Under the pieces are notes generated by a model that saw nothing but the letters and a program-made list of their open reading frames with translations, did not search any database and had not been told where the DNA came from. DNA of 48,416 nt, counting the filler, from Jimgerdemannia flammicorona (taxonomy: Eukaryota), in NCBI GenBank assembly GCA_003990765.1. It is 2 parts of 2 records of this genome, joined end to end, with 100 filler letters (N's around TTAATTAATTAA, not from the genome) between each part and the next. Parts side by side here need not be neighbours in the genome. Positions count along the whole stretch, not along the records: positions 1 to 24,158 come from RBNJ01001016.1; 1 more part is not named here. One strand, written 5' to 3'. Positions 6,526-47,254 of this stretch are shown in pieces (within the stretch, counting starts at the first letter, position 1; each line of letters starts with the position of its first letter). The translations under genes were made by a program, and so were the position numbers.

Positions 6526-7571
6526 TATATCAAGTCTATATATCTCTAACATGTCTTAGCACACTGCTCCACTACTCTACTGAGCTCCTTTAGTACCTTC
6601 ATCAGATCCTTCTTCTCCTCTATACTCCTTTTCACTCTTGTTATCTTATAGATAAATATCCCTTACAACAGTACTGAGGACTAGTCTCTCAGCTTTTCTA
6701 TAATCTCTCTCCCAGCCAACCAAAGCCTAATATCTATATCTTTTATCCTAAATAAAGTTTTCTTTCAGACCTGAAAGCTAATATTAACCACCTTACCATA
6801 CTTTACTATAATCTCCTCTACTCTTCTCCTTATCTTAACTATCATTACTATAAATACTCTCTTCACCAATAACTGGGGTCTCATCTCAGACAGCAGACTA
6901 TAGAAGCTACAATTTCTCCTATAGTCAGCCCTGTCTTTATAGTCTCCTCCAAGAGGACAGTCTTCTCAAAGCCCACCTCTACTTTCTCAAGCCTCTTCAG
7001 AAACTTCACTAAAACCACTCTAGCTATCTACTTTGAGATTAGTTCCAGAACTATCTTTACTATCTGTAAGAGGGTTGCTTTTTAGGGTAACCATTATGTA
7101 GTTCTGGAAGGGTTTTCTGGAAGTTCTGGATATTCTGGAAGACCGTTTTCTTAAGGTCAAGATTAATTTTGTATGGAGTATGTCCTCTACACTTATTGAT
7201 TTCAAAATCGAGTTGATGTCTCAACCAAAGTCCCTTTTCAGACTAGTTCTGAATGTTTAGGATTTTCTGTATTTCAGGAAGTTCAAGAAACTAAGACCAG
7301 CTTAGTTGAATCAGCATATCACTGCAGATAATACTCAATTAGGAAATTTCATGATAGGGTTAGAAGTGGGACCTAATGGAGAGTGGATTTACTTAAGAGT
7401 AGTTTGTGGGTTATTAAATAGGTTTATTTGCTATTCATGATATTGCTATACTAGGAGTAGTTGTGTAAAGGGATATTATAGAACATCAATAGCTTTCACC
7501 AGTAACATTCAGGTAATACAAGACTCAGACAACATTTTCAACAACATTTTTGGTAAAAGGCAACTAGCAAT

Positions 7572-9565
7572 ATGGAGAGCAATGACCATACAGATATATA
7601 TACTAGGTCAGGTAGATCTAGGGCCTTCAACTGGCAGCAGGTGGGAAGGGGTTATGGCCTGGGGATGGGGGCTTTCAGAGAACTAAAGAATGGAGAAGGC
7701 TCTGGAGGGGGACCAGTATCCGATGGCAATGGGGGAAGATCTGGTCTCCCGAGCTTCACAGACAAGGTTAAGGAGAGTGGGTGGCTGGCTGGTAATAGAG
7801 CTGGTGCTGCTGAGGGGAAAGGCAAGGTGAGTCTTGGGAGGGAGGACAGTGCTCTGGCTGGGAGTGCAGGTGTAGGGGCTGGAGGTACTGCGGCTGGGGG
7901 TGTGACTGTTGATGGGAGTGTGATGGGAAATCAGAAAAAAAAAGGAGATGTGATAGCTGATGGCCAGGGGGGGCAGGAGTTCCCAATGTGGAAGGGGGAC
8001 CTGGTGATGGTATAATGGGGCTGGTGGTGACCCCATTGCTCAAGAAGTCGATCTCAGAGTTTGTGATAACCTTGTGCTTCTGGGGCTTAGTGGTGACAGC
8101 GAGGATGGTTCTGGGGCTTGTCTTGAAGCAGGTGGCTGGGGCGGCCTCGGTGAAGTTCCTGAAGGGTCTGGAGAGAGTCGAGGTGGGATTTGAGAAGACT
8201 GGTCCACTGGATGAGGCACTGAAGACTGGAGTTGTGGTTGGGGAGGTGGTGGTCTCTATAGTGCAGTACTTGCAATAGGACCCCAGAGTGGTGCAGCTTC
8301 TGGTAAAGGGGGTGCTCATGGTGACCAAGGAGGAGACCAGGAAGAGGGTAGAGGAGGTGATGATTGAGTATGGTGATATGGTGGATATCGGCTTTCAAGT
8401 GTGGAAGAGGATGATGATCAGGATGGGTGACATTGATGTCAGGATTTGGCTGGCAGGAAAGGAGGCCACGGGGAAGGCAAGTGACTGGCCTTCTGTGATG
8501 ATGTGGAGGGCATTCATCTGTAAGGTGTCAAGGGTGAAGGGGAATGAGGAGGAGGAGGAGGACTTGTTGGAGGTGCTGGAGGAGATGAGTGGAGCTGTAG
8601 AGAGGAGGGTGAGGGCCTGGAAGATATATGAGGAGTCAATGTATCTGGAGGTTGTAGAGGGGAAGTGAATCCACATGGAAAAGGGGCAGTGGGAGTGGGC
8701 ACAGGGGTGCAGGAGGCAGAGGGAGCTACTGGTAAGTATGACAGTCAAGGCGAAGAAGAAGGCAGTTGGGGCTGAGGTATCTGGGGGCATCGAGGCCAGT
8801 GTCTGGGCTAGTAAAGGGGTAGGGGAGGTGGAGGTAGGCAAGGAAGAAGATGGGAAGATGCTGAGTAAGGACCCTTTTGCCAATAGCACCTTTGAGGTCT
8901 GGGAGCCAGAATTGGACTCTGCAAAGAGAAGGATGTCAGAGGATGTGCTGATGAAGGGGGCCCAGTGAGTGCATTTTGGGGTCCCTGATGTGGTGAAAGG
9001 AGGCCAGGTGGTGGCAGCTGGTGAGGATGAGCTGGTGGATGTCCCTGAGGAGGAGCGGGATGAGGCTGTCAGTATGGGTACTGACACCATAATATTGGAT
9101 GCAGGATGGCCAGGGACTCCTGGAGGGAAGGAGGTAGGAAACTTGCTATAGATGAGCAAGGTGATAGATAACCTTATGGCTGATGCATTGGGAGAAGTGG
9201 ACCTGTGGGTTATGCCTGAGGGGCACTGGGAGTGGATTCTGCATGGTGAGGGAGTAGTGGAGGCACTGAGGGAGGAGATTCTTGCAATCCTCTTAAAGGA
9301 GGAGGGATATGAGGTCAATGAGGTGAGGAAGGCAGAGCTGGTGATGGCTGTGGGTGAGCAGGCAACATACTGCTGGGCTGAGCAGCATGGTTTGCAGTTC
9401 TGGAGGGAGGCCTGTCTGGAGTATCGAGAGGAATTTGAGGAGAGGGAAGATGAGGTGATGGTAGAACTCCTGGGAGAATTAGAGGCATGGGAAGCTGGGG
9501 AAAGGGAACTAGCTGCTGAACATGAATTGGACTTGGTGCAGAAGGAGCTGAATGTGGACTTGTAG
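7572..9565 (+). pseudogene. LINE ORF1 (RRM-like region followed by acidic/helical region), disrupted
   Basis: Successive ORF pieces 7572-9565 broken by stops and a frameshift. Homologous to 25390-27290. Confidence 0.8.
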
Positions 9566-9568
9566 AGG

Positions 9569-12500
9569 ATGGGATCACTTTTTTTTTTTTTTTTTTAACA
9601 TTATTCCTTATGAACAGTATAACTAACATTTTCTCTTTGAATATGAATGGGCTGAGGGGGTCTGGATGGCATAAGAACATTTTTACTTGGCTCAAGGGAT
9701 TGGAGGCTGATCTCTTTTTACTATAGGATGTTTAGTGTGAGAATGAGAATGATCAGGCAAAGTGGACTAAGGAATGGAGTGGGGCTTCTGCTTGGTTTGG
9801 AAAGGTGGCGATTCTGGTAAGGAAGGGTAGAGATGACTTGGAGGGAATCAGGATCAGTGTCTGGACCACACTGATGGTGGGAGGAGTGCAGGAGGGAGAA
9901 GTGGAGGCCTGGATGTATGGGAGGAGGTAGAGAGGTTGAGCTCCTTAGGAAATATGGGTAGAACATGATGGGGCAACTCCAGAGTCTATATGTATTGGGT
10001 GAAGGGCTTGGGTATAAGGATTGACTGGATTCTGATAGTGGAATGCTGGGGGTCTGATGTCTGGAAGGTATTGGAGGTGGAATGGTACCCATGGTCTGAT
10101 CACTGGGGACTGTTGGGACAGGGGCAGTTTGGGGGGAGTAGAGATGGACCTGGACATTGGCGCCTCAACTCCTCTCTACTAGCTGAGAAGGGGTTGTGAG
10201 ATTCATAGGTAGAGGACATTCAGATGAAAGTTTCTTGCTGGAGGTGTGAGGGTTTGTCAGTGGGTGTCTGGTGGATGAGATTGAAAGAGGCTGCGAGGGT
10301 CTATTGGGGAGAGGCTGGGAGAGAAGCTGGGAGATAAAGGAGGAAGTACACAAGGTATACTTCCAGCAGGCTGAGGAGATTGCAGATGGATTGAGCAGAT
10401 TTGCTTACTTCTGATGGGGTGGAGGATTGGAGGTTAGCATGGATTAAATTGGAGGTATTGGAACTGCAATAGGTGCTGAGAGAAGAGGAGGAGGTGCATA
10501 TGCAAAGTATGGCTGCTAGGCTATGGTGGCAGGGGCTTGAGGAGGGTGAGCAGCCTACTAGATATTTATCCTGTCTGCTCAAGGCTAGGAGGGTGAGACA
10601 TTGGTGGGATGGAGTTCTCGATGCCAATAGGGATATAGTGCATGGCACGCAACAAATCCTAGGGGTTTTGAAAGAGAGATGGCAGGGTTTGTGGAGTGAG
10701 GATGAAGAGGGTACTGATGAGGTAGCTATTGAAGATGTATTAGGAGAATGGAGGCCATCACAAGTGGCTAGACTGGATGACTTGGTCTTGCTGGTGTGAG
10801 GTGAGGAAGTCCAGAGTGTCCTTATGGCAACTAAAACTGGAACAGCACCAGGGGAGGATGGACTACCATGGGACTCCTGGAAGAAGATGGTCAAGGTCTC
10901 TGGCATTCTGGGGGAGATGACTACTCTCTGTGATCATATTCTTCAAAGCAGTGAATGGGTTGGAGAGCAGGACCTTGAGCTAGTGGCTTTATTATACAAA
11001 GATAAGGGGAGGAGAGAAGACTGGAAGAACTGGCAGCCGATCATGCTTTTGGACATAGACAGGAAGATGGTAACTAAGGTGGTTGTTGCAAGGCTGCAGA
11101 AGGTTGCCCAATAGGTGCTGGGGGAGGAGCAGTGGGGCTTTGTTGGAGGCAGGCTTATTAGAGATGGGACTGCTTGGGTGCATGGTATCATTGAAGGGGC
11201 CCGGGCTTGCAGCCTGGATGGGAGGTTGGTCTTTTTGGATCAGGAGAAGGCCTATGACTGGGTCTGGTGGGTTTGGCTGGCAAGGTGTTGGATCATATTG
11301 GTGTTCCTTCTGGATTTCGGGCTTCTATGGTGAATCTGCTCAAGGGCAGTTGGGCAGCACTGTTGTGTAATGGTCACCATGGTCAGGCATTTACCTTGAG
11401 AAGAGGGATTCCTCAGGGGGACCCCTTGTCCCCTATTCTTTATGCTCTCTCATTGGAACTGTTAATGGATAGAATTCGCCAGAAGGTAGTGGGGCTCTCT
11501 ATCTATGGCATAGTGTGGAAGATGGGGGCCTTTGCAGATAATATGGTGGTTGGCCTTGGGTCTGTGGCGGATGTCATGGCACTTCAGGAGACAGTGGAAT
11601 GGTATGAGGTTCACTCTGGGGCAAAGCTCAACTAGCATAAGTGTGAGACTATGGTGCTAGGGAATAGACTGGTAGGTGGGGACATTATTGGAACAATTGT
11701 CCCTACTGGTGAGATGGTATGGTATCTGGGCATCTTCCTCTCTGTATATGGTTCTATCTTGCCATAAGTGTGGTGAGAGAGCAGAGTGGCTATTTGGGGG
11801 GAGGTCCTTCAAGATTGGGGAGGCCGCCATATCTCTCTAGCAGGGCAGGTATCAATTCTGAATACATACTGATTTCCTAAGCTGTGGTATGTGGCATATC
11901 ACCTAGACTTCCCAGCTTGGATGATGAAAAGGCTGATGAAGGTGGCTAGGGATTGGATTTGGGCAGGGAGGAGGTCCCAGGTCAGTTGGGATACTCTTGT
12001 GATACCGGTGGACAGGGGAGGTCTTGGTCTTGTAGATTTCCCTAAGAGATTGCACTGCTTGCGAGCCTGGTGGCTGAAGAGAGCAGCTGAACTGCAGGGA
12101 GGAGGTTGGGTACTTCTGATGCAGAAGGTGTGGGAGATATGAACCTCCCCCTGAGGGTCCTCAGGAGATCTACTCTCTTTGGTAGGGCTCAATGGAATTT
12201 GGCGGCTGCAATTTAAGGGCTTTTGGTGGGAAGTGGTCAATAGAGCACACTGAATTGGTCTGTGCTGGCAAGGCAATGAGGGGGAGGTGTTGTGGGGTCC
12301 TCATATGTGGTGATGGGATAGACTGCTTCTGGGGGGTGCTCTACTTATTACTTTTGATATTGGGGATGGAGTGGAGTGTCAGCAGGGTCTTGGCCAAGAC
12401 CTTTGGCTGAGCGGTTGGCAGGTAGTCGGGATTGGTAAGGAGTGGGACTGGGCTGATATCTGGTCTTAGAATACTGAGGTGCAGCAGTGGCTTCCCCCCA

Positions 12501-13081
12501 AGTTCTGGGTGGTGTGGTGGTGAATGCTGCAGAGGAACATCATACTGAATTTCTGCACCAGGTATCTGGTGGATGGTGGCTGTTTTGATTGTGAGGAGTA
12601 TTATAATGTAGGACAAGTTGGAGGTTTGGTACAGATGCCAGAACATTGGCTGGGGGAGTGTGAGGTTTTGGGGGACTTTTGGGTTGAAATAGGGAATAGA
12701 CTGGGTGTGGAGTGCAGGCCAGTGGGTGAAGGGGATTGCTGGGAGGACTTGAGAGCTCGGCTGGTGAGGGGGGTGGGTGATAGTTGGCTCACTGTCAGGT
12801 GGGTGTTAGCAGTTTGGATGGGTCTGGCAGGATATTGGCTATTTGTATTTGAGGAGGAGTGGCAGATGAGCCTATAGGAGAAGGTTGTAAGGTGGGAGGA
12901 GCTGTTGGGGGATCTGTTGACTAGATGGTGGATAGGTTGGGGTCCCTCAGGGGGGCGGCAGCATGGTTTGGTGGCAAGGATATGTGAACAGAGTGGTGAG
13001 AGGGTGGGAATTGTATTCAATAAAGTGGTGTTTCATCGAGAAGGGATAGGGGGGAGGGGCCCCTCTAGGGGGATTGGATAG
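9569..13081 (+). pseudogene. LINE ORF2 (APE endonuclease, reverse transcriptase, C-terminal zinc knuckle), disrupted
   Basis: SLNMNGL, RIDWI, SDHW (APE). APGEDG, LDQEKAYD, GIPQGDPLSP, FADN for FADD (RT). C-terminal EHWLGEC. Confidence 0.93.
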
Positions 13082-13434
13082 GGGGTGGGTTTATTGTATT
13101 TATATAGGATAGATGGGTGTAATAAAGGATGAGTCCAAGTGACTATAAAAAAAAAAAAAAAGGGATATTATAGAAAGTGTTCAGGAGTTGTATTCAGATT
13201 TATTTAAGTCTGAGATTCTGAGGTCTGGGAGAAGAGGTATTTATACTAGTGAGGGGCTATCTAGACTATGCTAAATATAGATGTAGCACTTAGTGCCTTG
13301 CTGAGTCAGAATGCAGTCACATAGTACAAGTGTGATCTGATATATCAAGAGATTGTCTGACTGCTGAGTCAGTTTACAGTCACATTGTACAAGGCTAATC
13401 TAACTATACTATGACTGCTAAGATATTTATAGGT

Positions 13435-14532
13435 TTAGACACTGTCTGGGTAGTCTTCAATAATATCACCATTGATGACATCATCTCTGATGAAGTAGTC
13501 ATCTAGAAAAAGTAGTTCGCAAATTACTTCTCCTTGTTCACTGAGGTAATAATACATTGGGACTTCATTACCATCCTATAGGATAGCATCATCTGTCTCA
13601 TATACTGGATAAGGTGTTGGTGGGCAGAGGAGAGGTGCATTGTCTTCGCTTTCATCGGATTCACTGTCTGTATACCTTCTATAGATTATAGCACTATGAG
13701 TCATGGGGTTATAGTAAGCTGGCAGCTGTGGTTTATGTCACTCATACTCAGATGGTAGAGTGGTTGATTCAATCTTGAGGGTTGTCTGGAGGTATAGGTT
13801 GTGTTCTCCAGTCTCTTCATTATAGTTGAAGTAATCAGGGGTGAACATGGGTTGATATTTATGCCAGTGGTCATTGTCTCAATAGGTCTCATAGGTGATT
13901 ATGAACTGTTGTAAGTTCATTGGCAATGTTGGCAGAGTGATCAAAGTTGGCAGAGATTCTTGGCTGGAGGTCATGTTGGCATCAGAGGGATCATTGTCTT
14001 CTGCTTTATCTTCATCAAACTGGATTATATCATAGACATCCTTCATAGTGTATCTAACTTAAGGCATTTGTAGGATATGGTCGTCAGGGTGTGGAAAGGT
14101 TCTGTCTGTGGTCTGGATATACTTGAGGTACTTGTAGTTGAGTTCTTATATCATGTCATCGATTTGACCATAGGACAGAGTAGCAACCATTTCGGTGGTA
14201 GTAACTCAGAGGCAGGGAATAAAGGTGCTATACTCATAGAAGAGTTCTCAGTGTTTGCAGGCAATAAGTTTCTGGTATTGAGACATCTGAGTAATGTCTG
14301 TATTATGGTGGTGTTCGACCATGTCTTCCAGGAGGCAGCCGATCTGGTAGTAGCTTGAGATTTATCCAATTTGGTAGGCCTCGCTAAGTATGTTCAGGAC
14401 ATTCCATTGGGCTTCTACAAAGTAGAGGGGTGCTAGACTATAGATATTCATGAGAGGTAGAGGGGGTGTAGCTCAATTAATAATGGCATTCCAAATGTCA
14501 GCATGGATGCAGTTGTAGATCTCAGTAGTCAT
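13435..14532 (-). pseudogene. U3-encoded accessory ORF of element A, 365 codons (3' LTR copy)
   Basis: ATG at 14532 to TAA at 13435, 1098 nt with no net frameshift. Internal stops are TGA/TAA/TAG explainable by C>T. Same length in both LTRs. Confidence 0.8.
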
Positions 14533-14823
14533 ATTTGTGTATATTTAGAAGTTGTGGTTGTTGTTTTGTTTTAGTTCTCTGTTTGACACATCTTAGTGCT
14601 CAGTATATATGTATTTGGTCCTGATTGGTAAGATTCCATTTGTATAAATCTTGTGTTCTGTGACTTTGTATTGACTCAGCTTTGTACACTGTGACATCAG
14701 TTTAACTCAGCTTCATGACTGAGCAGGTGATTTCCAGATTTGTTCAGAGGTTGCATGTGATTTTGGTGGCTTGTTCAGAGAGTAATGTGTGATTTCGGTG
14801 GCTTGAAGATTATGTGCTTACAA

Positions 14824-14836
14824 CTCTCCCCTTCTT
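14824..14836 (-). promoter_or_regulatory. Polypurine tract of element A
   Basis: AAGAAGGGGAGAG, one base before the TGTAAG start of the 3' LTR on the minus strand. Confidence 0.9.
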
Positions 14837-14850
14837 AGCTTTCAATGTCC

Positions 14851-15188
14851 TCATTGGGGCCTTCTAATTTGTTCTAGCATTGTTATATCATTTGGAAGGT
14901 TAAAAGTCTGGTGAAGTTCATTTTTCTCAGAAAGTGGCATGCTCATAGTACAGTTGCCTAACATATTGGATTCACACATTAAAGGGTCATGTGTTCAATG
15001 CCATGTGCCAGAAGTGATTCTGACATCATTCACTGCTGGAGAATTTCCTCTAAGGAATCTTCTTAAATGTCTATGCCTCATTTCCCACCAGTGGTATGGG
15101 AAGAATAGGCTTGCTTTCAGTTTTGTTATTTTTTCAGAGGGTTGGTATTCTTTGTCTTGACTTGCTGAGTTCTTGATTTTTTACTCAT
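14851..15188 (-). pseudogene. Candidate small ORF (~112 aa) between pol and PPT in element A
   Basis: 110 codons from 15180 with a single internal TGA (likely CGA). ATG at 15188 joins the frame if the A6 run was A7. Confidence 0.4.
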
Positions 15189-15248
15189 GATAATTATAAT
15201 GTTTGAGAGGGTAATATATAGTGTGTACTAATAGGTGTCAGATAGATT

Positions 15249-15537
15249 TTAGTTGTTCAAGAAATCATATTCCTAAACTAAGTTGGTAGCATTCTGGAGA
15301 TTGGTCTTGGGTTCTCATATTGCATCATAGATCAGGTAACCTTTCCATTTAATAAGGTACTCAGGGTGGTTCTTGTTGTCACCTTTGTTGAGAATTTGTT
15401 CAACTTCATATTCTTCTTGATTATTAATTATGACAGGTGCAGGTGGTTCAGTGGTCTGGTTTGGAAATAGCTCATCATCATTTTCATTGTATCACTTGAG
15501 ATATTGGACATTAAAGACTGGGTGAACCCTTATAGTG

Positions 15538-15571
<34 letters not shown>

Positions 15572-18500
15572 GTCACTTGGACTCTTCCTTTATTACACCC
15601 ATCTATCTCATATAAGTACAGTGAACACACCCCCTCTCCAATCCCCTAGGGGGGGCCCCTCCCCTCTATCCCTTCTCAACAAAACACCACTCTATCAAAT
15701 ACAATCCCCACCCTCCCACCACTCTGTTCATACATCCTCACCACCAAACCTCGCCATTGCCCCTCTGAAGGACCCCAACCTATCCACCATCCAGTCACCA
15801 GATCCCCCAACAGCTCCTCTCACCTTAAAACCTTCTCTTGTAGACTCATCTACTACCTCTCCTCAAATACAAATAGCCAATGTCCTGCCAATCCCATCCA
15901 AACTACTAATATCCACCCAATAGTGAGCCAACTATCACCCATCCCCCCTACTAGCTGTGATCTCAAATCCTCCCAATGACCCCCCTCACCCACTGGCCTA
16001 TATCCTACACCCAGTCTATTTCCTATTTCAACCCAAAAGTCCCCCAAAACCTCACACTCTCTCAGCCAATGTTCCAGTATCTGCACCAAACCCCCAGCTT
16101 GCCCTACATTGTAACACTCCTCACAATTGAAACAGCCACCATCCACCAGATGCCCTGTGCAGAAATTCAGCATGACATTCCTCTGCAGCATTCACCACCA
16201 CACCACCCAGAACTTGGGGGGAAGCCACTGCTATACCTCAGTACTCCAAGACCAGACTCTTATAGTGTCTGGTAGCACCAATTTGTAGAAAATAGGAGAG
16301 ACTTGTGTGATGACTTTGAATGGTCCAATGAACTTGCTGTTCAGCTTTGTAGATAGTCTGTGCTTAAGGTTGTCTACTCAGTATCCTTGGATATCCAATA
16401 GAACTTTTTCTCTAATATCAAATATTTCTTCTTAGTAGTGTTGATTAATATACTGTAATTGTTGTTCTTGAGCTCACAATAAGTTCTCAATTATGATCTG
16501 ACTTAGATTACACATTCAGAGTAAGAATTCTTCAATAGCTTCAACTGTAGAGGGTTCTTCAGTAGTTCGGATAAGTGTCAAAGGGGTGTTTGGGTTTTGT
16601 CCAATGTTGGCAAAAAATGGGGTCATTCCAAGAGAGGCTTACTTGCTATTATTATAGGCAAACTTGACTGTGGTGAGATGTTCATGCCAATTATCTTGTC
16701 TGTAGAAAATATAGTTTCTTAGCATTTGTTCCAGAGTTCAGTTCATTCTTTCAGTTTGGCCATCAGTTTCAGGGTAAAAGGCTGTGGATAGTGCAAGTTT
16801 TGTTCCAAGGTATCCATGGAGGACTTTCCAAAAATGGCTAGTAAACTTTGGGTTCCAGTCACTAACAATGGTCTTAATAGTGGAAGATGTTATCGAACAA
16901 GAGTGTAGCTATGTCTAGAGCTGTTGTTGTAGTAGTAGTAGGCACAAAGTGAGCTTGTTTACTAAGATAGTCCATAAAGACAACAATTGCATCTTTTCTG
17001 TTCTTGGTTCGAGGTAGTTGTACATATAATGAAGTCCATAGAGATTTGTTTCCAATTAGCAGATAGTACTGGGATAGGGTGAAGTAAACCAGGTTTTGCA
17101 AGTGTTGAGGACTTGTTCCATTGGTAGATATCATAGGAAGTAATATAGGTCTTGAGCTGATCTGCCATGCAGAGCCAATAGAAGTTTCAGGAGATAACTT
17201 CATAGTATTTGTCAAATCCTAAATGTCCAGCTGTAGGGGCATTATAATATTCAAATAGAATGGTTCTTCAGAGGTCTCAGTTGTTTAGAACATACAGTCT
17301 GTCCTTGTAATAGATAGCATTTTCCTTGAGTTGATATTGATGGTACCAGGTATGCTTATCAGTATCATCACTATTCAGAATTTCTCAGAGTGCTTGAGCT
17401 TCCTTATCATCAGCACATGGTACAATAATTTGTTCCATGATAGTGTTGGTAACCAAGGTGAGAGTTTGGATAACTTCTTTGATTAGTGGTCTAGATATTA
17501 CATTGGCAATAATGTTTTCCTTGCCAGGGCAATACTGGATTTTATAGTCAAAGTTAGTGAGGACTTTCATCCATCTGGCTTGCTTTCAAGAAAGGGTAGC
17601 CTGTATCTTGATATTGACTAATGACTTGTAGTCAGTCAATATAGTGAAGTGTACTCCTTCTAAATATGATTGCCATTTGATCAAAGTGTCTATGATGGCT
17701 AACATTTCCTTCTCATGAGTTGCATAGTTGATTTCGGCATCATTGAACTTGTGGGAATGATAGGCCACAGGGTGTCCTTCTTGCATGAGCACTGCTCCAA
17801 GAGCTAGGTCAGAGGCATCAATAGTGACTTCATATAGCAGGGCAGGATTTGCCACTTGAAGTACTGGAGTGGTTATCAAGGCATCTTTCAGTGCTTGAAA
17901 GGCTGTATCTTGTTCAGGTCCCCAATTTGCAAGATTGTTGAAGTCTTTTTCTTGTTTCATAGTCCAGGGCTGTTCTTCTTTCTTACTGTACTTGGTCATT
18001 TGGGTAAGGGTGGTAGCAATTTTGGTAAAGTTGGTAACAAATTGTTTGTAATAATTTGCTAATCCTAGGAATGACTAGAGGTCCTTCAGCTTCTTGAGTC
18101 TGGACCAATCCTTGATTGTGGAGATTTTGCTGGGGTCTACTTTGATTCCATTGGGTGTGACAATATATTCAAGGAATTGGATTTCCTTCAGGAAAAATTC
18201 ACACTTGCTGAGTTTTGCAAAGAGTCAGTTTTCTTAGAGTTTCAATAGTATTAGCTCGAGGTATTCAAGATATTCCTCCAGGGTTTTGCTGAAGACTAGA
18301 ATGTTGTCAATGTAGATAATAACAAATTTGTCCAGGTATAGGTGCAGGATGGTGTTCATCAGTGTCTGAAAGATTGCAGAAGCATTGGTTAAGCCAAAAG
18401 GTATAACCAGGAACTCAAAGTGTCCATAGCAAGTTCAGAAGGCTGTCTTGTAGATGTTTTCTTCTTTTATAGCAATTTGCCAATAGCCATTTTGCAGATC

Positions 18501-19607
18501 AAAAGAGCTCATGAATTGTAGGTTGGTGAGTCTGTCAAATATCTCATTGATTCTGGGTAGTGGACAGCAGTTCTTGATGATCTGTTCATTGAGGTCATGG
18601 TAATCAATGCACATTCACAGGTCTTCTCCTTTCTTAACAATAAAGAGGACCAGTATACCATAGGGTGATATACTGGGTCTGATGAATTCTTGTTCTAGGA
18701 GCTCATTGATTTCTTTCTTGAGTATATCGATTTCTCTTGGCAACATGTGGTAGATTGACTTGAAGGCTGGCTTGGCATCTGGAATAGTCTTGATGATATA
18801 GTCTACTGCTCATTTAGGAGGTAGGCCTTTCAGAAGCTTCTTTGGAAATATGTCTCAGACTTTCTGAAGTAGTGGTCTGACATGGCTGTCAACTTTGGAA
18901 AAGTCTTCTTCAGAGTTCTCAGGTTCTTCTTTGGATGGGCAGATGGAGATAGTAAAGAGAGGGCATTTCTTGGCCAATTTCTTGAGTTGTAACTTGTTAA
19001 TGTGGGTGATCTTTGGTCCAGAGTCACTAGAACTAAGTGGGTCCTTTTTACCTTACAGTTTGAAGTTGTGGCATCCTTTCTTGATGGTCAGAGAATGGTT
19101 TACCCAATCAATCATAGGGTTCTCTTGTTTCAACCATAGAGTTCTAAGGATGATTTCATTGTCCGGAAGTGGTACAATCTGGAGGATAACATATACTCAA
19201 TAGTCACCAATTTGAAAGAGTAGATTGCGAACTTCCTTACTGATAACATGTGAGGTTCCATCGGCTATAGCAACTGCTTGAGTTTGTTGTACTGAAGAGG
19301 TGAAGACCTTGAGTCTGTTGGCTGTTTCTTTATTAATAAAGTTGTCTGAGGCACTACTGTCTATCATAATCTTAACAGGTGCTTGGTTGACAAAAGCTTG
19401 AAGTGTAAGCAGTTTGTCTGATCTAATAGTAGTAATTTCAGTTATAGGAGCTTTTCTTCTATTGGTTCTTCTTTGAGCCAATTCATTGATATAAGAGAAG
19501 CAATCATCAATCATTCAGGATGAGTACATTCCAATACCATGGGGGCATCAGCCACTTGGTACATATTCATCTTTGATTTTCTTATAGAATTGTTCTTCTT
19601 TGTTCAT
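15249..19607 (-). pseudogene. pol: pol of element A: protease, RT, RNase H, integrase, chromodomain
   Basis: IMIDSSASDNF (PR), YIDNIL for YIDD (RT), TIDASDLALGAVL and YATHEKEMLAI (RH), ISMDFI and [11 protein letters not shown] (IN), EEYEVEQIL...YLIKWKGY...EPKTNL (chromodomain ~15270-15420). Confidence 0.93.
15541..16258 (-). mobile_element. 5'-truncated LINE inserted in the integrase C-terminal region of element A
   Basis: Poly(T) 15541-15568. TSD cttatagtgtct (15529-15540 / 16259-16270). Close match to 12460-13146. Confidence 0.95.
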
Positions 19608-19627
19608 AATAGGTTGGACTGGGCCTT

Positions 19628-20038
19628 GTTTGATGAGCCAAATCCTTTGGATTCTTGGATGGTGGGTAGTAGTTCAGGGACTTTTTTGACTATCAGAGTT
19701 GACTCGATTTTTTCGAATAGGATCTGGGCAATGCAGAAACCTATGGGAATCTTGAAGAGTGTCCAACTATGGTTTCGGATAAGGATAATAATTTCACCTG
19801 TATAATCTTTGTCAATGACTCCTCCTTCTACTGAGAGTCCTTTTAATGCTAGACTGCTGTGACAGCATATTCTTCCAACATGTCCTTTAGGGATTTGGAT
19901 ACTGATTCCTGTATAGACTTGCTTGACTTCTTGGTTGGAAACTATAGCTTCTTCAGCTGCATATAGGTCATATCTAGCTGCTTTTTGGCTTCCTTTAGTT
20001 GGGGCTTTGGTAGTTTGTCTTAGCTTGACAAAATATAG
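19628..20038 (-). CDS. dut: dUTPase domain (trimeric type) within the element A polyprotein
   Basis: Manual translation: LYFVKLRQTTKAPTKGSQKAARYDLYAAEE...TGISIQIPKGHVGRICCHSSLALKGLSVEGGVIDKDYTGEIIILIRN...CIAQILFEKI...QESKGFGSS. All five dUTPase motifs are in order and the domain has no stop. Confidence 0.93.
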
Positions 20039-20107
20039 TGTTCTGGTAGTCAGATTATTGAGGTGGTATAGAGTAGTAACAGTTGCTCATATTACTGTTT
20101 GGGGTTT

Positions 20108-22350
20108 TTAGTTGGGGCAGGCACTGGTCATGTGTTCTATCTTTTGGCAATAGAAGTATGCTCCGCTTCTTTGAAGTTCATTTCTTTCACCTTCAGTGAG
20201 TTTCTTGAAGATACTCAGCTGGGTGGGTTTATGATTTCTGAGTGTCCAAGAGGTGGGTGTTGAGGGAGTTTGGGATGTTTCATACTTGGGTTCTTCTTTT
20301 TTAGTCCAAGTCTTTTCCTTGTTGTTGAATTGTCTTCAGGGCAGAATTGGTCCAGCTGTTAGGATTTGCTTGACCATAGTCTTGATTCTTGCTAGGCACT
20401 ATTGTTGGTGATCACAACCAACTGGGCAGCCTTGTTCATGGATTTTTCTAGTAAGCCATTCAGGCAGGGTATCAAATAAATTGTCTGCTCTTATACCATT
20501 TCATGCTTCATCATTGGTAATATATCCTAGGCCAACAGTGTTCAGGAGTGACTCGAGTTTTGTACAGAAGGTTTTGAATTCTTCTTTGCCATATATATCA
20601 AATTTGAGGTTGCAGAGTTTTACTTGAGATTCAGCAATTATGGTTTCACTATAGTATTGGGCAATCATGAGTTGTTTGAGTCCAGGGGCTGCAGGATAAG
20701 CTCTATATCCTGGGATATTATTTGCTATATTCAGGCAACTACTGCAGGTCGGGTATCCCATGTGAGGGGTTTTTCAGAAAGGATTCATCACTATTCTTCA
20801 GCAGGTCCTCAGAAGAATGTAATAACTCAGCAGACATAGGCTGTAGTAGTAGCAAAGAGTTGTTTCAGAGTATGGTTATTTATCAGCAGGCAGTCAGCAA
20901 CTTGCTCATTGGTCTATTGATTGGCTTCAAAGTTGGTATCAACTACACTAATGAAGCTTTGAACTTCTTGTGCAATACCATTGAAGGTAGATAGGCTCAG
21001 ATTTTTGGTAGGTCAGATCTGTTTGGCTAAGGCAGTAATAGTTGCTGTCATTATGGCTACTTGAGCCATGAGGTCTAGAATCTGTTAGTTTGCCATATTG
21101 TTTACTGGAAGCAGTTGGACTATTGGTAGTAGTGTTGCTGGTACTACTTGAGGTACTGGTACAAAGTGTGATAGAGTTCTCTGAGTCTGTGTAAGTTGCT
21201 AGAGTAGTAGTTGTGGGTCTGGAGTAAGAGCTTAGTAGATAACCATTTGTTGCTATGTTGGTATATTTTGTCCTGATGGAGGCACATCTCCTTCAGTGGT
21301 GTATCTGGGATTGAATTCACTGAGATACTCCTCCTCCTCTTCAGTTTGGTCCTCATGTAGTTGAGTTTGCTCAGCATCAAAATAGACAGAATCAGTTGTA
21401 TATCTGATTTTGGATGGACTTAATTCAAAGTCAAGTTCTGGTTTGGTATTGGTTTCTGGTTTAGGTAGAGCTGTAGCTGGGCCTGCTTCTGGTTCAGAGT
21501 CAGGTAGTTGATGAAGGGTTTCTCTTGCTTCTTCTTTAAAAATATAGCGAGTCTTACTGTTTTGGAATCAGTAGTATAATGCAGTCTTGGTTCTGGTATG
21601 GTGAAAGTCAGTAGAGTTGAGCCACTTGGCTACAGAGGCTTAGGCTTTGTGAGAGACTAAGGCTAGAAAGACTGCTGCTGATTGTCCTAGGTCACTCGGA
21701 TTTGTAGAGCTGACAAAACTCTTGTTGAGAAGAGTAAAGAAGGCTTCTATAAGACCTTCTTCATCTTGACTTACTGGGTGTAGAGCAAGGAGTTCAGTGA
21801 ATAGGGTTTCGCCTATTTGCTGATTTAACTAGAGTATTTCTTTCTTCAAATGAAATTTGTCCCACTTGTTGTAGGTATAGAGGTCAAATTGTCCTTGTAT
21901 ATCAGATTCAATTCTCTCCAGATTGTCAGATAGTTCAGGATAAATTCCAGTTCAGAGATTGGGCTTTATACCAACTTGTAGGAATTTGCAGAGGGGTTTA
22001 TAGTGGGGTGAGGAAGCATCTTGAAGTGGAATTGGATTGTAAACTGCTGCTACCAAGTTATTAGAGGGTTGCTTTTTAGAGTAACTATTATGTAGTTCTG
22101 GAAGGGTTTTCTGGAAGTTCTGAATATTCTGGAAGACTGTTTTCTTAAGATCAAGATCAATTTCATATAGAGTACATCCTCTACACTTATTGATTTCAAG
22201 ATCAGGTTGATGTTTCAACCAAAGTCCCTTTTTGGACTAGTTCTGGATGTTCAGGATTTTCTATATTTCAGGAAGTTCAAGAAACTTAGACCAGCTTAGT
22301 GGAATTGGCATATCACTGCAGACAATACCCAATTAGGAAATTTCATGATG
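20108..22350 (-). pseudogene. gag: gag of element A with long N-terminal extension and CCHC knuckle
   Basis: KKLTEGERNELQRSGA(Y/C)FYCQKIEHMTSACP knuckle at ~20110-20210. Capsid-like region 20450-21010. Upstream coding-like frame runs back into the LTR. Confidence 0.8.
22044..22055 (-). promoter_or_regulatory. Primer binding site of element A (probably tRNA-iMet)
   Basis: TGGTAGCAGCAG starting 3 nt after the 5' LTR end. TGGTAGC is complementary to initiator-Met tRNA 3' ends. Confidence 0.75.
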
Positions 22351-24115
22351 GAATTAGGAGTGGGATCTAATGGAGAGCAGATTTACTTAAGAGTGGTTTG
22401 TGGGTTATTAAATAGGTTTATTCACTATTCATAATATTACTATACTAGAAGTAGTTATATGAAGGGATATTATAGGGAAGTGTTCAGAAGTTGTATTCAG
22501 ATTTATTCAAGTCTGAGATTCTGAGGTCTGGGGGAGGGGGTATTTATACTAGTGAGGAGCTATCTGAACTATGCTAAATATGGATATAGCACTTAGTGCC
22601 TTACTGAGTCAGAATGCAGTCATATAGTATAAGTGTGATCTGATATGTCAAGAGATTGTCTGACTGCTGAGTCAGTTCACAGTTACGTCATATAAGACTA
22701 ATCTAACTATACTATGACTGCTAAGCTATTTATAGGTTTAGATACTATCTGGGTAGTCTTTGATGACATCACCATTGATGACATCATCTTTGATGAAGTA
22801 GTTGTCTAGAAAAAGTGGTTCACAGATTACTTCTCCTTATTCACTAAGATAATAATACATTGAGACTTCATCACCATCCTATAGGATAGCATCATCTGTC
22901 TCATATGCCAGATAAGGTATTGATGGGTAGAGGAGAGGTGCATCATCTTCACTTTCATCAGATTCACTGTCTGTATACCTTCTATAGGTTACAGCACTAT
23001 GAGTTGTGAGGTTGTAGTAAGCTGGTAGCTGTGGTTCATATCACTTGTACTCAGGTGGTGAAGTGGTTGATTCAATCTCAAGGGTTGTCTGGAGGTACAG
23101 ATTGTGTTCTCTGGTCTCTTCATTGTAGTTGAAGTAATTGGGGATAAATGTGGGTTGGTATTCGTATCAGTGGTCATTGTCCCAATAGGTCTTATAGGTG
23201 GTTATGAACTATTGTAAGTTCATTGGCAATGTTGGCAGAGTGATCAAAGTTGGCAGAGATTCTTGGCTGAAGGTCATGTCAGAATCAGAGGGATCATTGT
23301 CTTCTGCTTCATCTTCATCCAACTGGATTATATTGTAGACATCCTTCATAGTATATCCGACTTGAGGCATTTGCAGGATATGGTTGTCGGGGTGTGGGAA
23401 GGTTCTGTCTGTGGTCTGGACATACTCAAGGTACTTGTGGTTGAGTTCTTGTATCATATTGTCAATTTGACCATAGGACAGAATAGCAACCATTTCGGCA
23501 GTAGTAACTTGGAGGTAGAGAATAAAGGTACTATACTCATAGAAGAGTTCTCGGTATTTGCAGGCAATGAGTTTCTGGTTTTGAGACATCTGGATAATAT
23601 CTATGTCATAGTGATGTTTGACCATATCTTCCAGGAGACAGCTGATCTAGTAGTAGCTTGAGATTTGTCTGATTCAGTGGGCCTCGCTAAGTATGTTCAG
23701 GGTATTCCATCAGGCTTCTACAAAGTAGAGGGGTGCTAGACTATGGATATTCATAAGAGGCAGAGGGGGTGTAGCTCAATTGACAATAGTATTCCAAATG
23801 TCAGTATGGATGCAGTTGTAGATCTCAGTGGTCATATTTGTGTATGTTCAGAAGTTGTAGTTGTTGTTTTGTTTTGGTTCTCTGTTCGACACATCTCAGT
23901 GCTCAGTATATATGTTTAGTTCTGATTGGTAAGATTCTGTTTGTATAAATCTTGTATTCTGTGACTTCATATTGACTCAACTTTGTGTACTGTAACTTCA
24001 GTTTGACTCAGTTTCATGACTAAGTAGGTAATTTCCAGATTTGTTCAGAGGTCACATGTGATTTCAATAGCTTGTTCAGAGGGTGACATGTGATTTCGGT
24101 GGCTTGGAGGTTGTG
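22059..24115 (-). repeat. 5' LTR of element A (~2.06 kb)
   Basis: Colinear with the split 3' LTR. Minus-strand TATAAATA at ~22541-22548 marks the U3/R boundary region. Confidence 0.93.
22738..23835 (-). pseudogene. U3-encoded accessory ORF of element A, 365 codons (5' LTR copy)
   Basis: MTTEIYNCIH...QISSYY*I...; includes track ORF 23209..23625. Several stops fall at codons that are sense in the other LTR copy. Confidence 0.8.
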
Positions 24116-24158
24116 GTTGTTGTTTGTTTTGGTTTTCTGATTCGACGCGTCTCGGTGC

Positions 24159-24258
24159 NNNNNNNNNNNNNNNNNNNNNNNNNNNNNNNNNNNNNNNNNN
24201 NNTTAATTAATTAANNNNNNNNNNNNNNNNNNNNNNNNNNNNNNNNNNNNNNNNNNNN
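24159..24258. other. Artificial gap or contig linker
   Basis: 44 N + TTAATTAATTAA (stops in all six frames) + 44 N = 100 bp, exactly at the window centre. Confidence 0.97.
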
Positions 24259-25303: not shown

Positions 25304-28300
25304 ACATACCTTTTTCTGATAATATTTAGATTATACAAACTTTTGGCAATACTCAAGATATTGTTTTTAGAGAAAAGATACTAGTAACATAGTAACTAAT
25401 AAGTATTCTGAGATATATATTGAGCAGGGCAGCTCTAGTATATTTGACTGGCAGTATGTAGGGAGGAGTCATGGCTTGGAGAGAAGTATGTGGGGCTTGC
25501 TAACTGGAGGACATGGAAGAGGAAGAGATAGTACTGAGAGACAGAGATCTGAGAGGATGAGCTTTGTAGACAAGATAAAGAAAGGTCATCTAATGACTAG
25601 ATTGGAGGGTTGGTTGAGGAAGAACAAGGAGATAGTGCAAGCTACAGGATCTGATAGAGTAGCTCAGGGCAGAGAGAGCAGTAGGGCTGAGAGAGTAGTG
25701 ACTAGAGAGAGCAGGACTACTGATAGCAAGGAGACTGCTAATCTGGAAAAAAAATTCAAATATAATAGTTGATGGTAGATCTGGATAGAGAGTGAGCATG
25801 AGGCCCAGAGATCTGATGAATAGTATAACAGGTCTGGTGGCAGTACTATTACTTAAGAAATTGAGATCAGAATTTATTATCATATTGTGTTTCTGGAACT
25901 TAGTAGTGATAGTGAGGATGATTCTGAGACTTCTGGCCCAGGAGGTGAAGGGAGCAGTATCAGTGAAGTTTTTGAATACTTAGGAAGAGGTGAAGATGGG
26001 CTTTAAGAAGGAGGGTATGCTGTTAGAAGTGATGGAGAAGGGAGTAGTAGTGGTGGGGAGTAGCAATTCCTATGGCCTAGTGCTTGTACTGGGATCTCTA
26101 AGTAGTATAGCTAATAGTATTGAATGTTCTTATAGTATTGAAGGAGAGGGCCAAAGAGTTGATTGTAGAGACCATTAAGGAGTATAGAGATATTATAAAT
26201 GTTGGGTTTTGGGTCTGGAAAGACATAGAATTCAGAATAGGAGATGTGGATATCAGGGTATAGCTGGTAGATAAGGAGAATATAGAGAAAGCAAGGGACT
26301 GGCCAGTGGTCCTCAAATGGGGACCTGTGGAGTATAAGGTCTCAAGAGTGAAAGGGATATCAGAGGAAGAAGAGGACCTGCTAGAGGCATTGGAGGATCT
26401 GGCTGGGGCTGTGGAGAGAAGGAGATTGGCCTGGAAGGAGTTTGAGCCCAAGACAGTAGTGGAGATCATAAATGGCAAGAGGGTGCAGCTAGATCAGGCA
26501 GCATGGGAGAGGGTCCAGGAGAGGTACATTCAGAAGAATCTGTTGACTAAGTTGGAAGAGAGGGTGGCCAGGGGGACCTCCACTGAAGAGGTAGGATTGA
26601 GGATAAGTATCTGGGCAGAAGAGAAGAGAGCAGTACCAGAGGAGACTCCAGAAGAGAGAGAAGGCTCAGGACTGAGTATTGTTGTTGAGCAGAAATGGCA
26701 GAGGGGGAGTGCCCTCAGTATGGAGTGCTGGGTGGGGCTAGAGGAGATGATGAACTGCAGGATGTGCTGGAGGAGAATTGGGATGAGTTGGTGAGAAGGA
26801 ATACAGAGGGTGAGCAGGTGAAAGGGGGGAAGAGAGTGGCCCAGAGGGTGGCAGAAGCTGTCAATGAGGAGAAATGACTGTAGAAAAAGTTTGAGAATAT
26901 GATAGCTGAGGAGCTGGGGGGAGAGAACTTCCAGATACTGAGCAAGAGGTATTAGAGTGAAATCCTGCAAGGCAAGAAGGTGCTACAGAAACTCTGAGAT
27001 GAGATAATAGTAGCTTTGCTAAAGGCTGAGACATATCAAGTAGATGATAACAGAGAGGCAGCACTTCTGATGATTGCAAATGACAGGGCTGTATATATGT
27101 GGGGCCTGAGAAAAGGGCTGACAAAGTAGCAGGTAGTGTGCAAAGAGTACTGGACAGAGATGGAAGCTGTGGATAGTGTAGATTGTCAGGAGATCTTGGA
27201 GGCATTAGAGGCTCAGCAGGGAGAGGCTGATGAGCTTGAGGTAGAGAGGAACCTAGATGTTGCAGGTGATGCAGCAAGTATAAAATTGTAGAGTAGATAG
27301 CTGTTCTTTTAATAATATTATTCAATATAAACAGTATAACTAGAATCTTATCTTTGAATATCAATGGGCTATAGGGAGTGGTGAGATGTCAAAATATCTT
27401 TAGATGGTTGAAGGGGATGGAAGCAGATTTGTTCCTTCTACAGAATATTGAGTATAATGGGAATTTGTATATTCTAGACTAAATAAAGAAATGGGGTGGT
27501 GTGGCTATTTGGCATAAGTATGTGGGCATTCTGGTTAGGAAAGACAAGGGGGACATTGAAGATATTAGATATTGGGAAAGCAGGGTAGTGTAGAGAGTTT
27601 GAAAGAGACCAGGCTGGAGGCCCTTGATGGTTGGGTCATGTTATTGTCCAGCAGAAAGAGAGGAGAGAGTGGAATGGATTTGAGGGCTACAAGAGTCTGG
27701 AGCATTGGTAGAGACCAGGATTGACTGACTTGGGGGGGACTTTAACATGTTATATAATAGAAGGATAGACAGAACTAATGGAGGAAGGGAGATAGTGGAT
27801 AGGAGTAGTGATATGGAAGTCTGGGAGGAAGTCAAACATCTGAGCTCATTAGTAAATACTGGGAGGCTTGGATGGGGGGATTGTAGGGTCTATACTCACT
27901 GGGTAGCAGGGCTGGGCTCAAGGATTGACTGGATGTTGACCACTGAATGCTAGAGAGTTGTTATTTAGAGAACTTTGGAAACTATTTCATATCTGTGGTC
28001 AGATCACTGGGGTCTGCTAGGAGGGGGTATTTTGGGGGTAATGGGGAAGGGCCTGGACATTGGTGTCTAAATACCTCTACTAGGAGAGACCTTCTTATAT
28101 AATGTATGGATAGTAGATATTAGCTTCAGAATACTTAGTTAGAGAGTGGAGGGGCTGAGGATTGGGGATTACTGGAGGAGATTGAAATCTAAGATACAAC
28201 AATACTGGGGGAAGATAGAAAGGATGCAGGGTGCTCAGAGGAAGAAGTGAGTGAGGTGGATCTCCCAGAGGTTGGCAAGGTTGTTGACATCTTGGGCAGA

Positions 28301-31041
28301 TATGTTGAATGATAGTAAGGAGAGATATTGAAGGATACAGCAGATCAGACTAGAGGTGGAGGAGCTACAGAGTATGCTGAGGCAAGAGGAGGATCTATAG
28401 GTTAAGGGCATGATGACCTGGCTGCAGTGGCAGAGACTGGAGGAGGGAGAGAGGCCTACTAAGTTTTTGTCATGGCTTCTGTAGGTAAGGAAAGTACAAT
28501 AGCAGTGGGAGGGGGTCTTGGATGAGGCTGGGGAGTTGATAGTGAGAACACTAGAGATTCTGGACCAGTTGAGCAAATGATGAGAGCAATTGTGAAGTGA
28601 GGAGAATGAGGGAGTAGGGTGCTAGATATTGACAGATATTTGGAGGAATGGCACCCAGATCCAGCAGCAGACTTAGGTGACCTGGGTGTGGCTGTCCAAG
28701 GAGAGGAGATTTAGCAGATACTGATGATGATGAGCTCAGAGATAGCACCAGGAGAGGATAGCTTATAGTGGGATTTTTGGAAGAAAATAGCAGGAGTTGA
28801 GGTGATTCTGGAGGAAATGACCACAATATGCAATGAAGTGATTAGCTTGGGGGTATGGATTAGGGAGCAGAGCTTGGGTCTTGTGGCTCTGCTATTTAAG
28901 AATAAGGGGAGGAGGGAGGAGTGGAAAAACTGGAGGCCAATCATGCTTCTGGATATGGACTGCAAATTGGTCATGAAGATATTGGTGGTTAGGCTGCAAG
29001 GAGTAGCTCAGTAGGTTCTGGGGGCAGAGCAGAGAGGATTCATAGGGGAATGTCTGATCAGGGATAAGATAGCCTGAGTGTATGATGTCATCAAGAGAGC
29101 TTGTACTACTGGGGTAGATAGATGACTGGTTTTCTTAGACCAAAAGAAGGCCTATGACAGAGTCTGGCATATGTGGTTGGAAGGGGTACTAAAGCATATT
29201 GAGGTCCCCTCTGGAGTCCAGCAGGCCTTGGTCAGTTTGCTGGAAGAGAGTTAGGTAGCAATCATAGTGAATGAGTATAGGGGGGTTTCTTTCTCTCTGG
29301 GCAGAGGAGTGCTACAGAGGGATCTACTATTACTAATCCTATATGTATTGTCCCTGGAGTCTTTTTTGGATAGGATACAGTGAAAGGGTGGGGAGGTTGG
29401 ACATTCTGGAGGTTAATTGGAAGGTGGGGCCTTCACTAACAATATAGTAGTTGGACTGGGGTCAGCTGAGAATGTTGTAGCACTGAAAGGTACAGTAGAA
29501 TAATATGAGAGATACATGAGTACTAAGCTCAACTGACATAAGTGTGAGACCTTAGTTTTGGGAGGAGGGATAGTAGGTGGGGACATGATTAGAACAATTG
29601 TCTCAGCAGGAGAAATAGTTCACTATCTGGAAATCTACTTTTTGGTATATGGTTCCTTGTTATCTTATAGATGATGGGAGCAGTAGTTAGAGGAGTGGGG
29701 GAGCACTCTCTTGGGGTAGAGTGATCATTATATATCTTTGGCAGGAAGGGTGATAGTGCTGAATATATACTGGCTGCTAAAGCTATAGTATCTGGGGTAC
29801 TATTTGGACTTTCCAGCATGGGTGGTCAAGCAATTATTGATAATGACCAGGATCTGAATATAGGCAGAGCAACAGAGTCAGATTGGTTGGAAGGTATTGA
29901 TCTGGCCAGTGAACTGGAGAGGCCTGGGTCTGGTGGATTTTCTCAAGTATCTTCATTGCTTAAGGGTATAGTGGCTGAGGCAAGCAAGTGAGTTGAGAGA
30001 TGGAGAGTGGATTCCTCTCATATAGAGAGTGTGAGAGGTTTAGTTCTCCCTCATAGTGTGACCAGGGATCTTCTATCTCTAGTGGCTTTGAAGGGGAGTT
30101 AGAGGATGCACTATAGGGGATTCTAGTGGGAGGTGGTTGGTGGGGCTCATCATATTGATCTCTGATAGCAGAGTGATGAGGGAGAGGAGAAGTGGGGACT
30201 CCAGATGTAGAGGTGGGACTGCCTTCTGTTGAACAGGATACTGGTAGATGACTTCTATTTAGAGGATAGCATAGAGTACCTTTGGGAGCATGGGAGAGAT
30301 CTATGGTCTGAAGTATAGCAAGGGGTGGAGATTTGAGAAGAGTGGGACTGGAATAGAATTTAGTAATAGAGCAAGCAGGCAGTGAGATAGATTTCCCCCA
30401 AGTTCTGAGTGGTATAGTGGAGAATTCTATAGTAGAATATAATATTAAACTATTGGATGAATTACTTGGTAGAAGGAGATGTCCAGGAGTATGAAGAGTA
30501 TCTGAATGTCAGACAGGAGAGAGGAGTGATACAGACTTCTGAACATTAGTTAGGGGAGTGTGAGGTGATAGGTGACTTTTAGAGGGTGATTGAGAGGCAG
30601 CTAGAGGGGTACTGACCAGGGCTGGTGACAGGAGGGAGGTTGGGTGACCTCCAGAGGAGATTGGTGGGGGGTTGAGTGATGAGTGATTGATATTAAAATA
30701 GGTGCTAGTTATTTGGATTGGACTTGTAGGATATTGGCTATATGTATTTGAGGAGGATCAATGGTTGACATTGGGGGTAAGGGTGGTTAGATGAGAGTGG
30801 CTGATAATGGATTTGTTGAATGGGTAGTGGAGGAGTGAGAGTGCTGGTGAAGAGTATTGGAGACAACTAGTAGAGACAATCTATAGGAAAAGTTGGGAGA
30901 GGATTGGAGTGACAGAGGGATTAGTGGTATTTCAGGAGAATAGTAAGAAAGAGAGAGAGCTTCCAAGTGAGATTGAGTGAGGAGTCCATTTATATTAGTA
31001 TATTATAGATGATTCGATAATAAAGTGGAAGTCCTTATAAC

Positions 31042-47240: not shown

Positions 47241-47254
47241 AGAGGGGCCTTTCC

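Follow-up and report, generated by a model that had tools for sequence, protein, structure and literature searches.

LTR retrotransposons are usually described as a gag-pol region placed between two non-coding LTRs, and protein genes located in U3 are the hallmark of a few complex retroviruses, for example MMTV. In this virus R is very short, and the Sag protein is a membrane glycoprotein of type II. According to the available text of PMC11569226, which cites Choi et al. 1991, MMTV encodes a dUTPase, sag and rem. Other LTR elements also carry extra genes: in the accessible portion of PMC3485330, the ORF0 of the rice element Retrosat2 is located upstream of gag-pol, inside the element and not in the LTR, and in the Cassandra TRIM a 5S rRNA-like gene is present in each LTR (PMC10853983, partial text). 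Gypsy elements bearing both a dUTPase and a chromodomain have been reported in basidiomycetes and in Tuber (PMC2864245, partial text). In the open-access texts covered, no report was found of a protein ORF inside a Ty3/Gypsy LTR.

The window analysed here is a stretch of 48,416 nucleotides, filler included, from Jimgerdemannia flammicorona (GCA_003990765.1). The self-BLAST of this window showed a pair of direct repeats, at 13160-14814 and 22462-24115, 88.3% identical over 1656 columns. They belong to an element on the minus strand, hereafter element A, with a 5' LTR of 1654 nt at 22462-24115 and a 3' LTR at 13160-14814, the latter being also defined by the LTR-LTR alignment. The internal region on the same strand (14815-22461) is heavily broken, and its domains were identified by Pfam on X-read translations; the coordinates of these domains were converted from residue numbers and are, hence, approximate. 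The order on the minus strand is dUTPase (~19631-20008, E value of 6.9e-28, positioned between gag and protease), protease (RVP_2, ~19074-19442), reverse transcriptase (RT; RVT_1, ~18165-18635), RNase H (RT_RNaseH, ~17550-17924), integrase, with its zinc domain (Integrase_H2C2, ~17109-17279) and its SH3 domain (SH3_Tf2-1, ~16258-16407), and chromodomain (Chromo, ~15267-15410). A polypurine tract, AAGAAGGGGAGAG, was read from the sequence at 14824-14836 (minus strand), 9 nt upstream of the 3' LTR. Therefore, the repeat pair together with the Pfam domain order and the adjoining polypurine tract identify element A as a chromodomain Ty3/Gypsy element. It is a Ty3/Gypsy chromovirus (Metaviridae) bearing a dUTPase and a chromodomain, with LTRs of about 1655 nt. 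As aligned, the LTR begins with the letters CACAAC and ends with CCCTT. No primer-binding site was recognised in element A on inspection by eye, and its flanks consist of another repeat and of masked N.

The position of the dUTPase, N-terminal in Pol, and that of the chromodomain, at the C-terminus of the integrase, are shared with PosPlaTy3 of Postia placenta, with the Phanerochaete element and with Tmt1 of Tuber (PMC2864245), whereas an LTR-resident ORF and a 1.6-kb LTR are not mentioned for these elements in the accessible part of that article. Among 120 RT relatives listed, the named ones were all from plants, with 40-50% identity; other than the named plants, the best listed relative presented 51% identity, and 84% was obtained for a fragment of the same family. 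The ESM Atlas matches of the RNase H piece were a mixture of Chordata and Streptophyta.

Several side features were observed in and around element A. A G-rich insertion of about 700 nt with a poly(A) run (15554-16256) separates the integrase SH3 domain from the chromodomain, and an inverted copy of it, 86% identical, is present at 12459-13161, its poly(T) end adjoining the 3' LTR; the insertion and its inverted copy possibly represent a SINE/LINE-like family. The 44 nt directly upstream of the 5' LTR (24116-24159) duplicate the LTR stretch 23860-23902, which precedes the ATG of the ORF described below, and have their CpGs intact. This duplication, past which masked N are found at 24159-24202 and 24215-24258, may represent part of a tandem LTR or the scar left by a recombination. 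At 7069-7481, a second, truncated copy of the leader and gag start of element A is 90% identical to 22063-22475; of the LTR end, it retains no more than about 14 nt.

Elsewhere in the window, a second Ty3/Gypsy element (45810-46973, minus strand) is far less decayed than element A, its RT and RNase H being open over 193 codons each. Downstream of it, there is an ORF of 220 codons (44243-44905, minus strand) without Pfam family; it was considered as a relative of the U3 protein and rejected, with an hhalign probability of 1.2%. A repeat family of extreme strand asymmetry occupies 8000-13000, 26000-31000 and 47000-48416, with a GC content of about 0.5 and a GC skew of about +0.5. Its copies are 63-67% identical and present long ORFs on both strands, without Pfam family. 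No tRNA or Rfam gene was found in the window.

The LTR of element A contains a TATAAATA at 22541-22548 (minus strand), where the initial annotation had placed the main LTR TATA; it was read from the sequence and is the presumed promoter of the genomic RNA. An AATAAA poly(A) signal is located at 22502-22507 (minus strand), 40 nt from the LTR end, and is kept in the 3' LTR. With the two signals so placed, U3 measures about 1.6 kb, and R and U5 are both very short. An ATG-to-TAA frame of 1098 nt without net frameshift, as had been proposed from the sequence, was recovered in this U3 in both LTRs: copy 1, in the 5' LTR, at 23835..22738, and copy 2, in the 3' LTR, at 14532..13435, both on the minus strand, with 365 codons followed by TAA, and both matched in tblastn by the two database relatives presented below. 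In copy 1, the ATG is at 23835 and the TAA at 22740-22738. An in-frame stop at 23848-23850 (minus strand), 5 codons ahead of the ATG, bounds the start of the ORF in both copies. On one side of the frame is the LTR start, beside the polypurine tract, and on the other, downstream, are the main TATA and then the AATAAA; the gene is thus entirely in U3, in agreement with its earlier placement. Since it is wholly contained in the U3 of a 1655-nt LTR, each element holds two copies of it.

A long U3 with a full-length sense ORF upstream of the LTR promoter is the layout of MMTV sag, the ORF being broken in this window, and element A further resembles MMTV by its dUTPase and its tiny R. MMTV is a betaretrovirus, whereas element A is a Ty3/Gypsy chromovirus that lacks env.

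The gene had been called complete, a description that does not apply to either copy, as each contains 9 internal in-frame stops. They are found at codons 20, 42, 54, 63, 209, 223, 265, 319 and 333 in copy 1 and at codons 20, 57, 95, 109, 129, 158, 218, 265 and 319 in copy 2, so that 15 positions are affected over both copies, 3 shared and 6 private to each. The U3 frame in this window is a complete-length pseudogene, and both copies are dead. Copy 1 is open from codon 64 to codon 208, a stretch that spans the overlap of the two relatives. There is no gap between the copies in the 1098 ORF columns, and the three single-base gaps of the LTR-LTR alignment are, every one, outside the U3 frame. The 9 stops of the U3 frame compare with 16-41 in four other frames and with 10-11 in the in-register antisense frame, which has an open stretch of 147 codons at 23218-23661 (plus strand). 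As the antisense frame is nearly as poor in stops, stop counts alone are not decisive for the U3 frame; what decides is the homologs and the codon-position composition, presented below. For every stop codon there is a sense codon from which C>T or G>A would produce it, and excusing the stops is therefore an argument without power on its own.

We then turn to the relatives of the U3 protein in databases. A word-indexed search of 5.8 billion proteins gave two relatives, of which one is in the near-length class and the other in the shorter class. When 1.84 billion representatives were searched exhaustively by HMMER, with a profile made of the two window copies and P0006, the same two proteins, P0006 and P0007, were obtained and nothing further. 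Both come from automatic gene calling, each as a singleton on a contig of about 1 kb, and they were compared as proteins. P0007 (JGI/IMG) has 128 aa and comes from one contig of 1180 nt. It begins with the same initial Met and aligns with codons 1-128 without gap or stop, with 98 of 128 residues identical to copy 1 and 107 of the 124 comparable positions identical to copy 2. P0006 (ENA), with 247 aa from one contig of 998 nt, aligns with codons 115-365 (146/251 identical, 197/251 positive) with only two gaps of 2 codons, and its last residue is the same as that of the frame. Its identity to the window copies is 58-67%, and the replacements are conservative. Neither relative is full length, P0007 ending at 128 and P0006 beginning at 115, so there is no single open 365-codon copy among the relatives. 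Together, they span all 365 codons without a stop, from the same start to the same end, which bears out the earlier proposal of an open ancestor.

At 15 of the 15 stop positions, a sense residue is present in a homolog (Arg in 5 cases, Gln in 6, Trp in 3 and Asn in 1), and each of the 12 private stops faces a sense codon in the other copy. The pairing of TGA with CAA, from which an ancestral CGA had been reconstructed, is found at 3 codons (42, 54 and 109), and P0007 presents Arg at all 3. When P0007 is taken as the starting point, 25 of its 30 mismatches to copy 1 and 18 of its 21 to copy 2 are compatible with C>T/G>A, and in the reverse direction only 2 (copy 1) and 1 (copy 2) are. Considering this direction, P0007 is therefore a less-decayed member of the same family. 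Contig scans were also carried out. No relative was found in metagenome contigs with the alignment and P0007 as queries, nor in the prokaryote genome contigs scanned; in viral contigs no relative was located with P0006, P0007, RT and a 32-nt LTR stretch, one tblastn relative being reported without a locus.

Constraint was evaluated against a drift null, in which window codons 115-365 of both copies were randomly mutated to the observed identity (1000 runs, two transition biases). Under this null, which assumes uniform sites and no CpG effect, new stops were absent in only 12-65 of 1000 runs, and replacements as conservative as those observed were obtained in 0-16 of 1000 runs. P0006, stop-free and conservative beyond the drift null, supports the constraint at protein level. 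Additionally, the base composition by codon position of the U3 frame is close to that of the RT-RNase H region of element A, with G at position 2 amounting to 0.09 in both, and the 9 in-frame stops in 365 codons of the U3 frame compare with 6 in 365 codons of RT-RNase H. The differences between copy 1 and copy 2 are distributed 54:23:55 over the three codon positions, a bias that was not counted as selection because the LTRs of one insertion diverge neutrally. P0006 has diverged and yet remains open as far as the shared stop, its replacements being conservative, which argues for selection over a long family history. The best explanation overall, and in our view a probable one, is that the U3 frame is what is left of a genuine accessory gene, specific to the family, that belonged to a high-copy Ty3/Gypsy chromovirus.

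A gene that is merely carried is a different matter: a captured host gene or an older ORF could reside in U3 without service to the element, its conservation reflecting young copies only. The product has no recognised protein family, so no function links it to retrotransposition, which is in favour of such a passenger. Against this, no host-gene relative was found among the 1.84 billion representatives, and the divergence of P0006, whose frame stays open to the shared stop and whose replacements are conservative, argues for selection over a long time. This origin appears unlikely to us.

The placement of the frame depends on which of the promoter-like signals is taken as that of the genomic RNA. 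A TATATA, candidate TATA box of an intra-U3 promoter, precedes the ATG by 72 nt at 23907-23912 (minus strand) and has its counterpart in the other LTR at 14604-14609. The initial annotation had placed it about 75 nt upstream; its presence holds in both LTRs, and as a promoter signal it is weak evidence alone, the hexamer being common in the window (71 occurrences, about 1 per 680 nt). Two TGASTCA palindromes, TGASTCA being the AP-1/Gcn4 bZIP site, precede the TATATA by 61-98 nt (23973-23979 and 24004-24010), and another two precede the main TATA by 57-126 nt (22605-22611 and 22668-22674). The window contains 11 TGASTCA for a shuffle mean of 10.2, and 8 of the 11 are in the two LTRs, 4 per LTR compared to about 0.35 expected from window shuffles, a clustering that was noticed post hoc. 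A further TATAAATA is present at 22727-22734, directly after the stop of the ORF.

If the TATATA were the genomic promoter, R would be about 1.4 kb long and would contain the ORF, which would then not be in U3 and would form the first cistron of the genomic RNA. The ORF is indeed preceded by a TATA-like box accompanied by two TGASTCA sites, and the leader from the box to the ATG is A/C-rich and, for a transcription start about 30 nt below the box, free of ATG. Nevertheless, the canonical TATAAATA lies 34 nt upstream of the AATAAA and at 79 nt from where the LTR ends, which is the usual arrangement of a U3 followed by a short R and a short U5, and with an R of 1.4 kb the 5' LTR would have a functional poly(A) signal at a distance of 1.4 kb from the cap; we consider this placement highly improbable. 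Finally, that U3 is non-coding and the frame a chance one, made to appear by excusing every stop as C>T/G>A, is scarcely credible: the derivation of all stops by these changes and the 10-11 stops of the antisense frame, against 9, are in its favour, but it is opposed by independent open relatives with identical start and stop, by the conservative replacements, by a codon-position composition matching that of RT, and by the lack of indels in the 1098 nt between the copies, the gaps of P0006 being all in-frame.

Returning to the accessory gene of the family, its intact product is a protein of 365 aa with no recognised family or fold. It is predicted to be formed by a helical N-terminal part of about 140 aa and a very acidic, Tyr/Pro-rich tail of about 225 aa, probably disordered. 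The structure models are poor, and this domain description is, thus, soft: AlphaFold2 gave a pLDDT of 33 for the X-read full length and of 51 for P0007, which was modelled as five helices. The ESM Atlas entry for P0006 has a pLDDT of 0.39 and no look-alike. P0006, the C-terminal 247 residues, has a pI of 4.05 and a net charge of -36, with 9% Tyr and 10% Pro. Short motifs are conserved in the C-terminal tail, as blocks invariant in the three-sequence alignment, and the only basic cluster is a short one, RKHR at residue 92 of P0007. No family was found by Pfam on the X-read translations of both window copies, and no match by a PDB sequence search with a four-sequence profile. Foldseek against PDB gave no match at an E value of 0.001 or better, and the wide structure search (VIA) gave only generic helical bundles, with a best Z of 7.5 and none above background.

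No membrane-like segment was detected, the highest 19-residue hydrophobicity (KD) being 1.32, and the protein therefore resembles neither Env nor Sag. The likeness to MMTV sag is, then, one of layout: the U3 protein differs from Sag in having no sequence similarity, with no Pfam or PDB match, and no hydrophobic membrane segment. Many transcriptional activators consist of a helical domain followed by an acidic, aromatic-rich tail, and the acidic tail rich in aromatic and hydrophobic residues that characterises Tax/VP16-like activators is present in P0006. By this analogy, a regulatory function is the most likely class, and the protein might serve the element as an adaptor, either as a transactivator or as an anti-silencing factor, rather than as a structural or a membrane protein.

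As an orphan, fast-evolving and family-specific ORF without assigned function, the U3 frame resembles other ORFs of Ty3/Gypsy elements, namely ORF0 of rice Retrosat2/RIRE (PMC3485330), brtn of Botrytis BcGypsy1 (PMC8365987) and the additional ORF of fungal chromoviruses (PMC2864245), as far as the available parts of these articles describe them. In contrast to ORF0 of Retrosat2, which is internal, the ORF of element A is duplicated in both LTRs and would persist in solo LTRs. With Cassandra (PMC10853983, partial text), it shares the presence of a gene-like unit with its own promoter, here a putative one, in the LTR and thus in every LTR copy. The Cassandra unit is, however, a fragment of a pol III RNA gene whose promoter is internal, carried by a plant element that is not autonomous, compared to a protein gene of 365 codons in an autonomous element.

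We also analysed the decay of the insertion. Transitions account for 186 of the 191 substitutions between the LTRs. By context, 79% of CpG sites differ, 30% of CpA, 20% of CpC and 3% of CpT, and there is no CHG preference. The RIP indices are 0.86-0.87 for TpA/ApT and 1.23-1.29 for (CpA+TpG)/(ApC+GpT). In RIP of the Pezizomycotina type, TpA/ApT is at least 0.89, (CpA+TpG)/(ApC+GpT) is at most 1.03 and the CpA>TpA change is dominant. Classical (Neurospora-type) RIP was rejected, since the indices fall outside these thresholds and CpG rather than CpA is dominant. From this pattern, we infer that methylated cytosines were deaminated, or that a RIP-like process centred on CpG was at work. Both U3 copies of this old insertion were killed by C>T/G>A decay, which is strongest at CpG.

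The public runs listed with words of the element were three DNA runs of one study, labelled soil metagenome, with a best share of 0.12 in a run that may come from the sample of the window itself; no RNA run was among those listed, which counts neither for nor against a transcript. In run X1, 8156 contig pieces match the 11-kb element with at least 80% likeness, and they are distributed as 861 with at least 99%, 2148 with 95-99%, 3624 with 90-95% and 1523 with less than 90%. These counts indicate, therefore, that the family is very abundant and of mixed age in the X1 sample. Among the 40 variant places listed, of 1475 in X1, there was no stop-codon variant.

Considering the signals in the LTR, the U3 gene may plausibly have its own promoter, consisting of the TATATA and the two TGASTCA sites upstream. 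A transcript starting below the TATATA would reach the AATAAA of the LTR 231 nt past the ORF stop, and one LTR could, therefore, yield a complete mRNA. An upstream ORF of 20 codons is present at 23832-23894 (minus strand), with its start at 23894 and a TGA that overlaps the main ATG (ATGA); it would be included in the mRNA only if transcription began upstream of the start predicted from the TATATA. Two routes of expression may be proposed. In the first, to which we attribute somewhat less than an even chance, a short mRNA would be made within one LTR, from a start below the TATATA at 23907-23912 to an end at the AATAAA of that LTR. In the second, whose chance we place close to even, expression would be from the U3 copy with which the element RNA ends on its 3' side, probably after splicing, in a manner analogous to MMTV sag.

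In the most far-reaching reading, each LTR of this thousand-copy family, including solo ones, would be an autonomous gene with a TATA-type promoter and bZIP-type TGASTCA sites, an ORF of 365 codons and a poly(A) signal; its product would be a trans-acting regulator, and element A would be a 'complex' Ty3/Gypsy element whose MMTV-like layout, with dUTPase and LTR gene, would have evolved independently of retroviruses. Taken as a whole, we give this reading only a small chance of being correct. Within it, the product would act as a Tax-like transactivator through the TGASTCA sites, or as an anti-silencing factor.

A gene placed in U3 would have consequences for the family. Gene dosage would scale with the number of LTRs and not with the number of elements, and solo LTRs could stay genes after the loss of the element. 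Additionally, it would provide a second, independent case for how a shift of the polypurine tract or an insertion in U3 makes a 3' ORF an LTR gene. For annotators, it is a caution that long LTRs may conceal genes.
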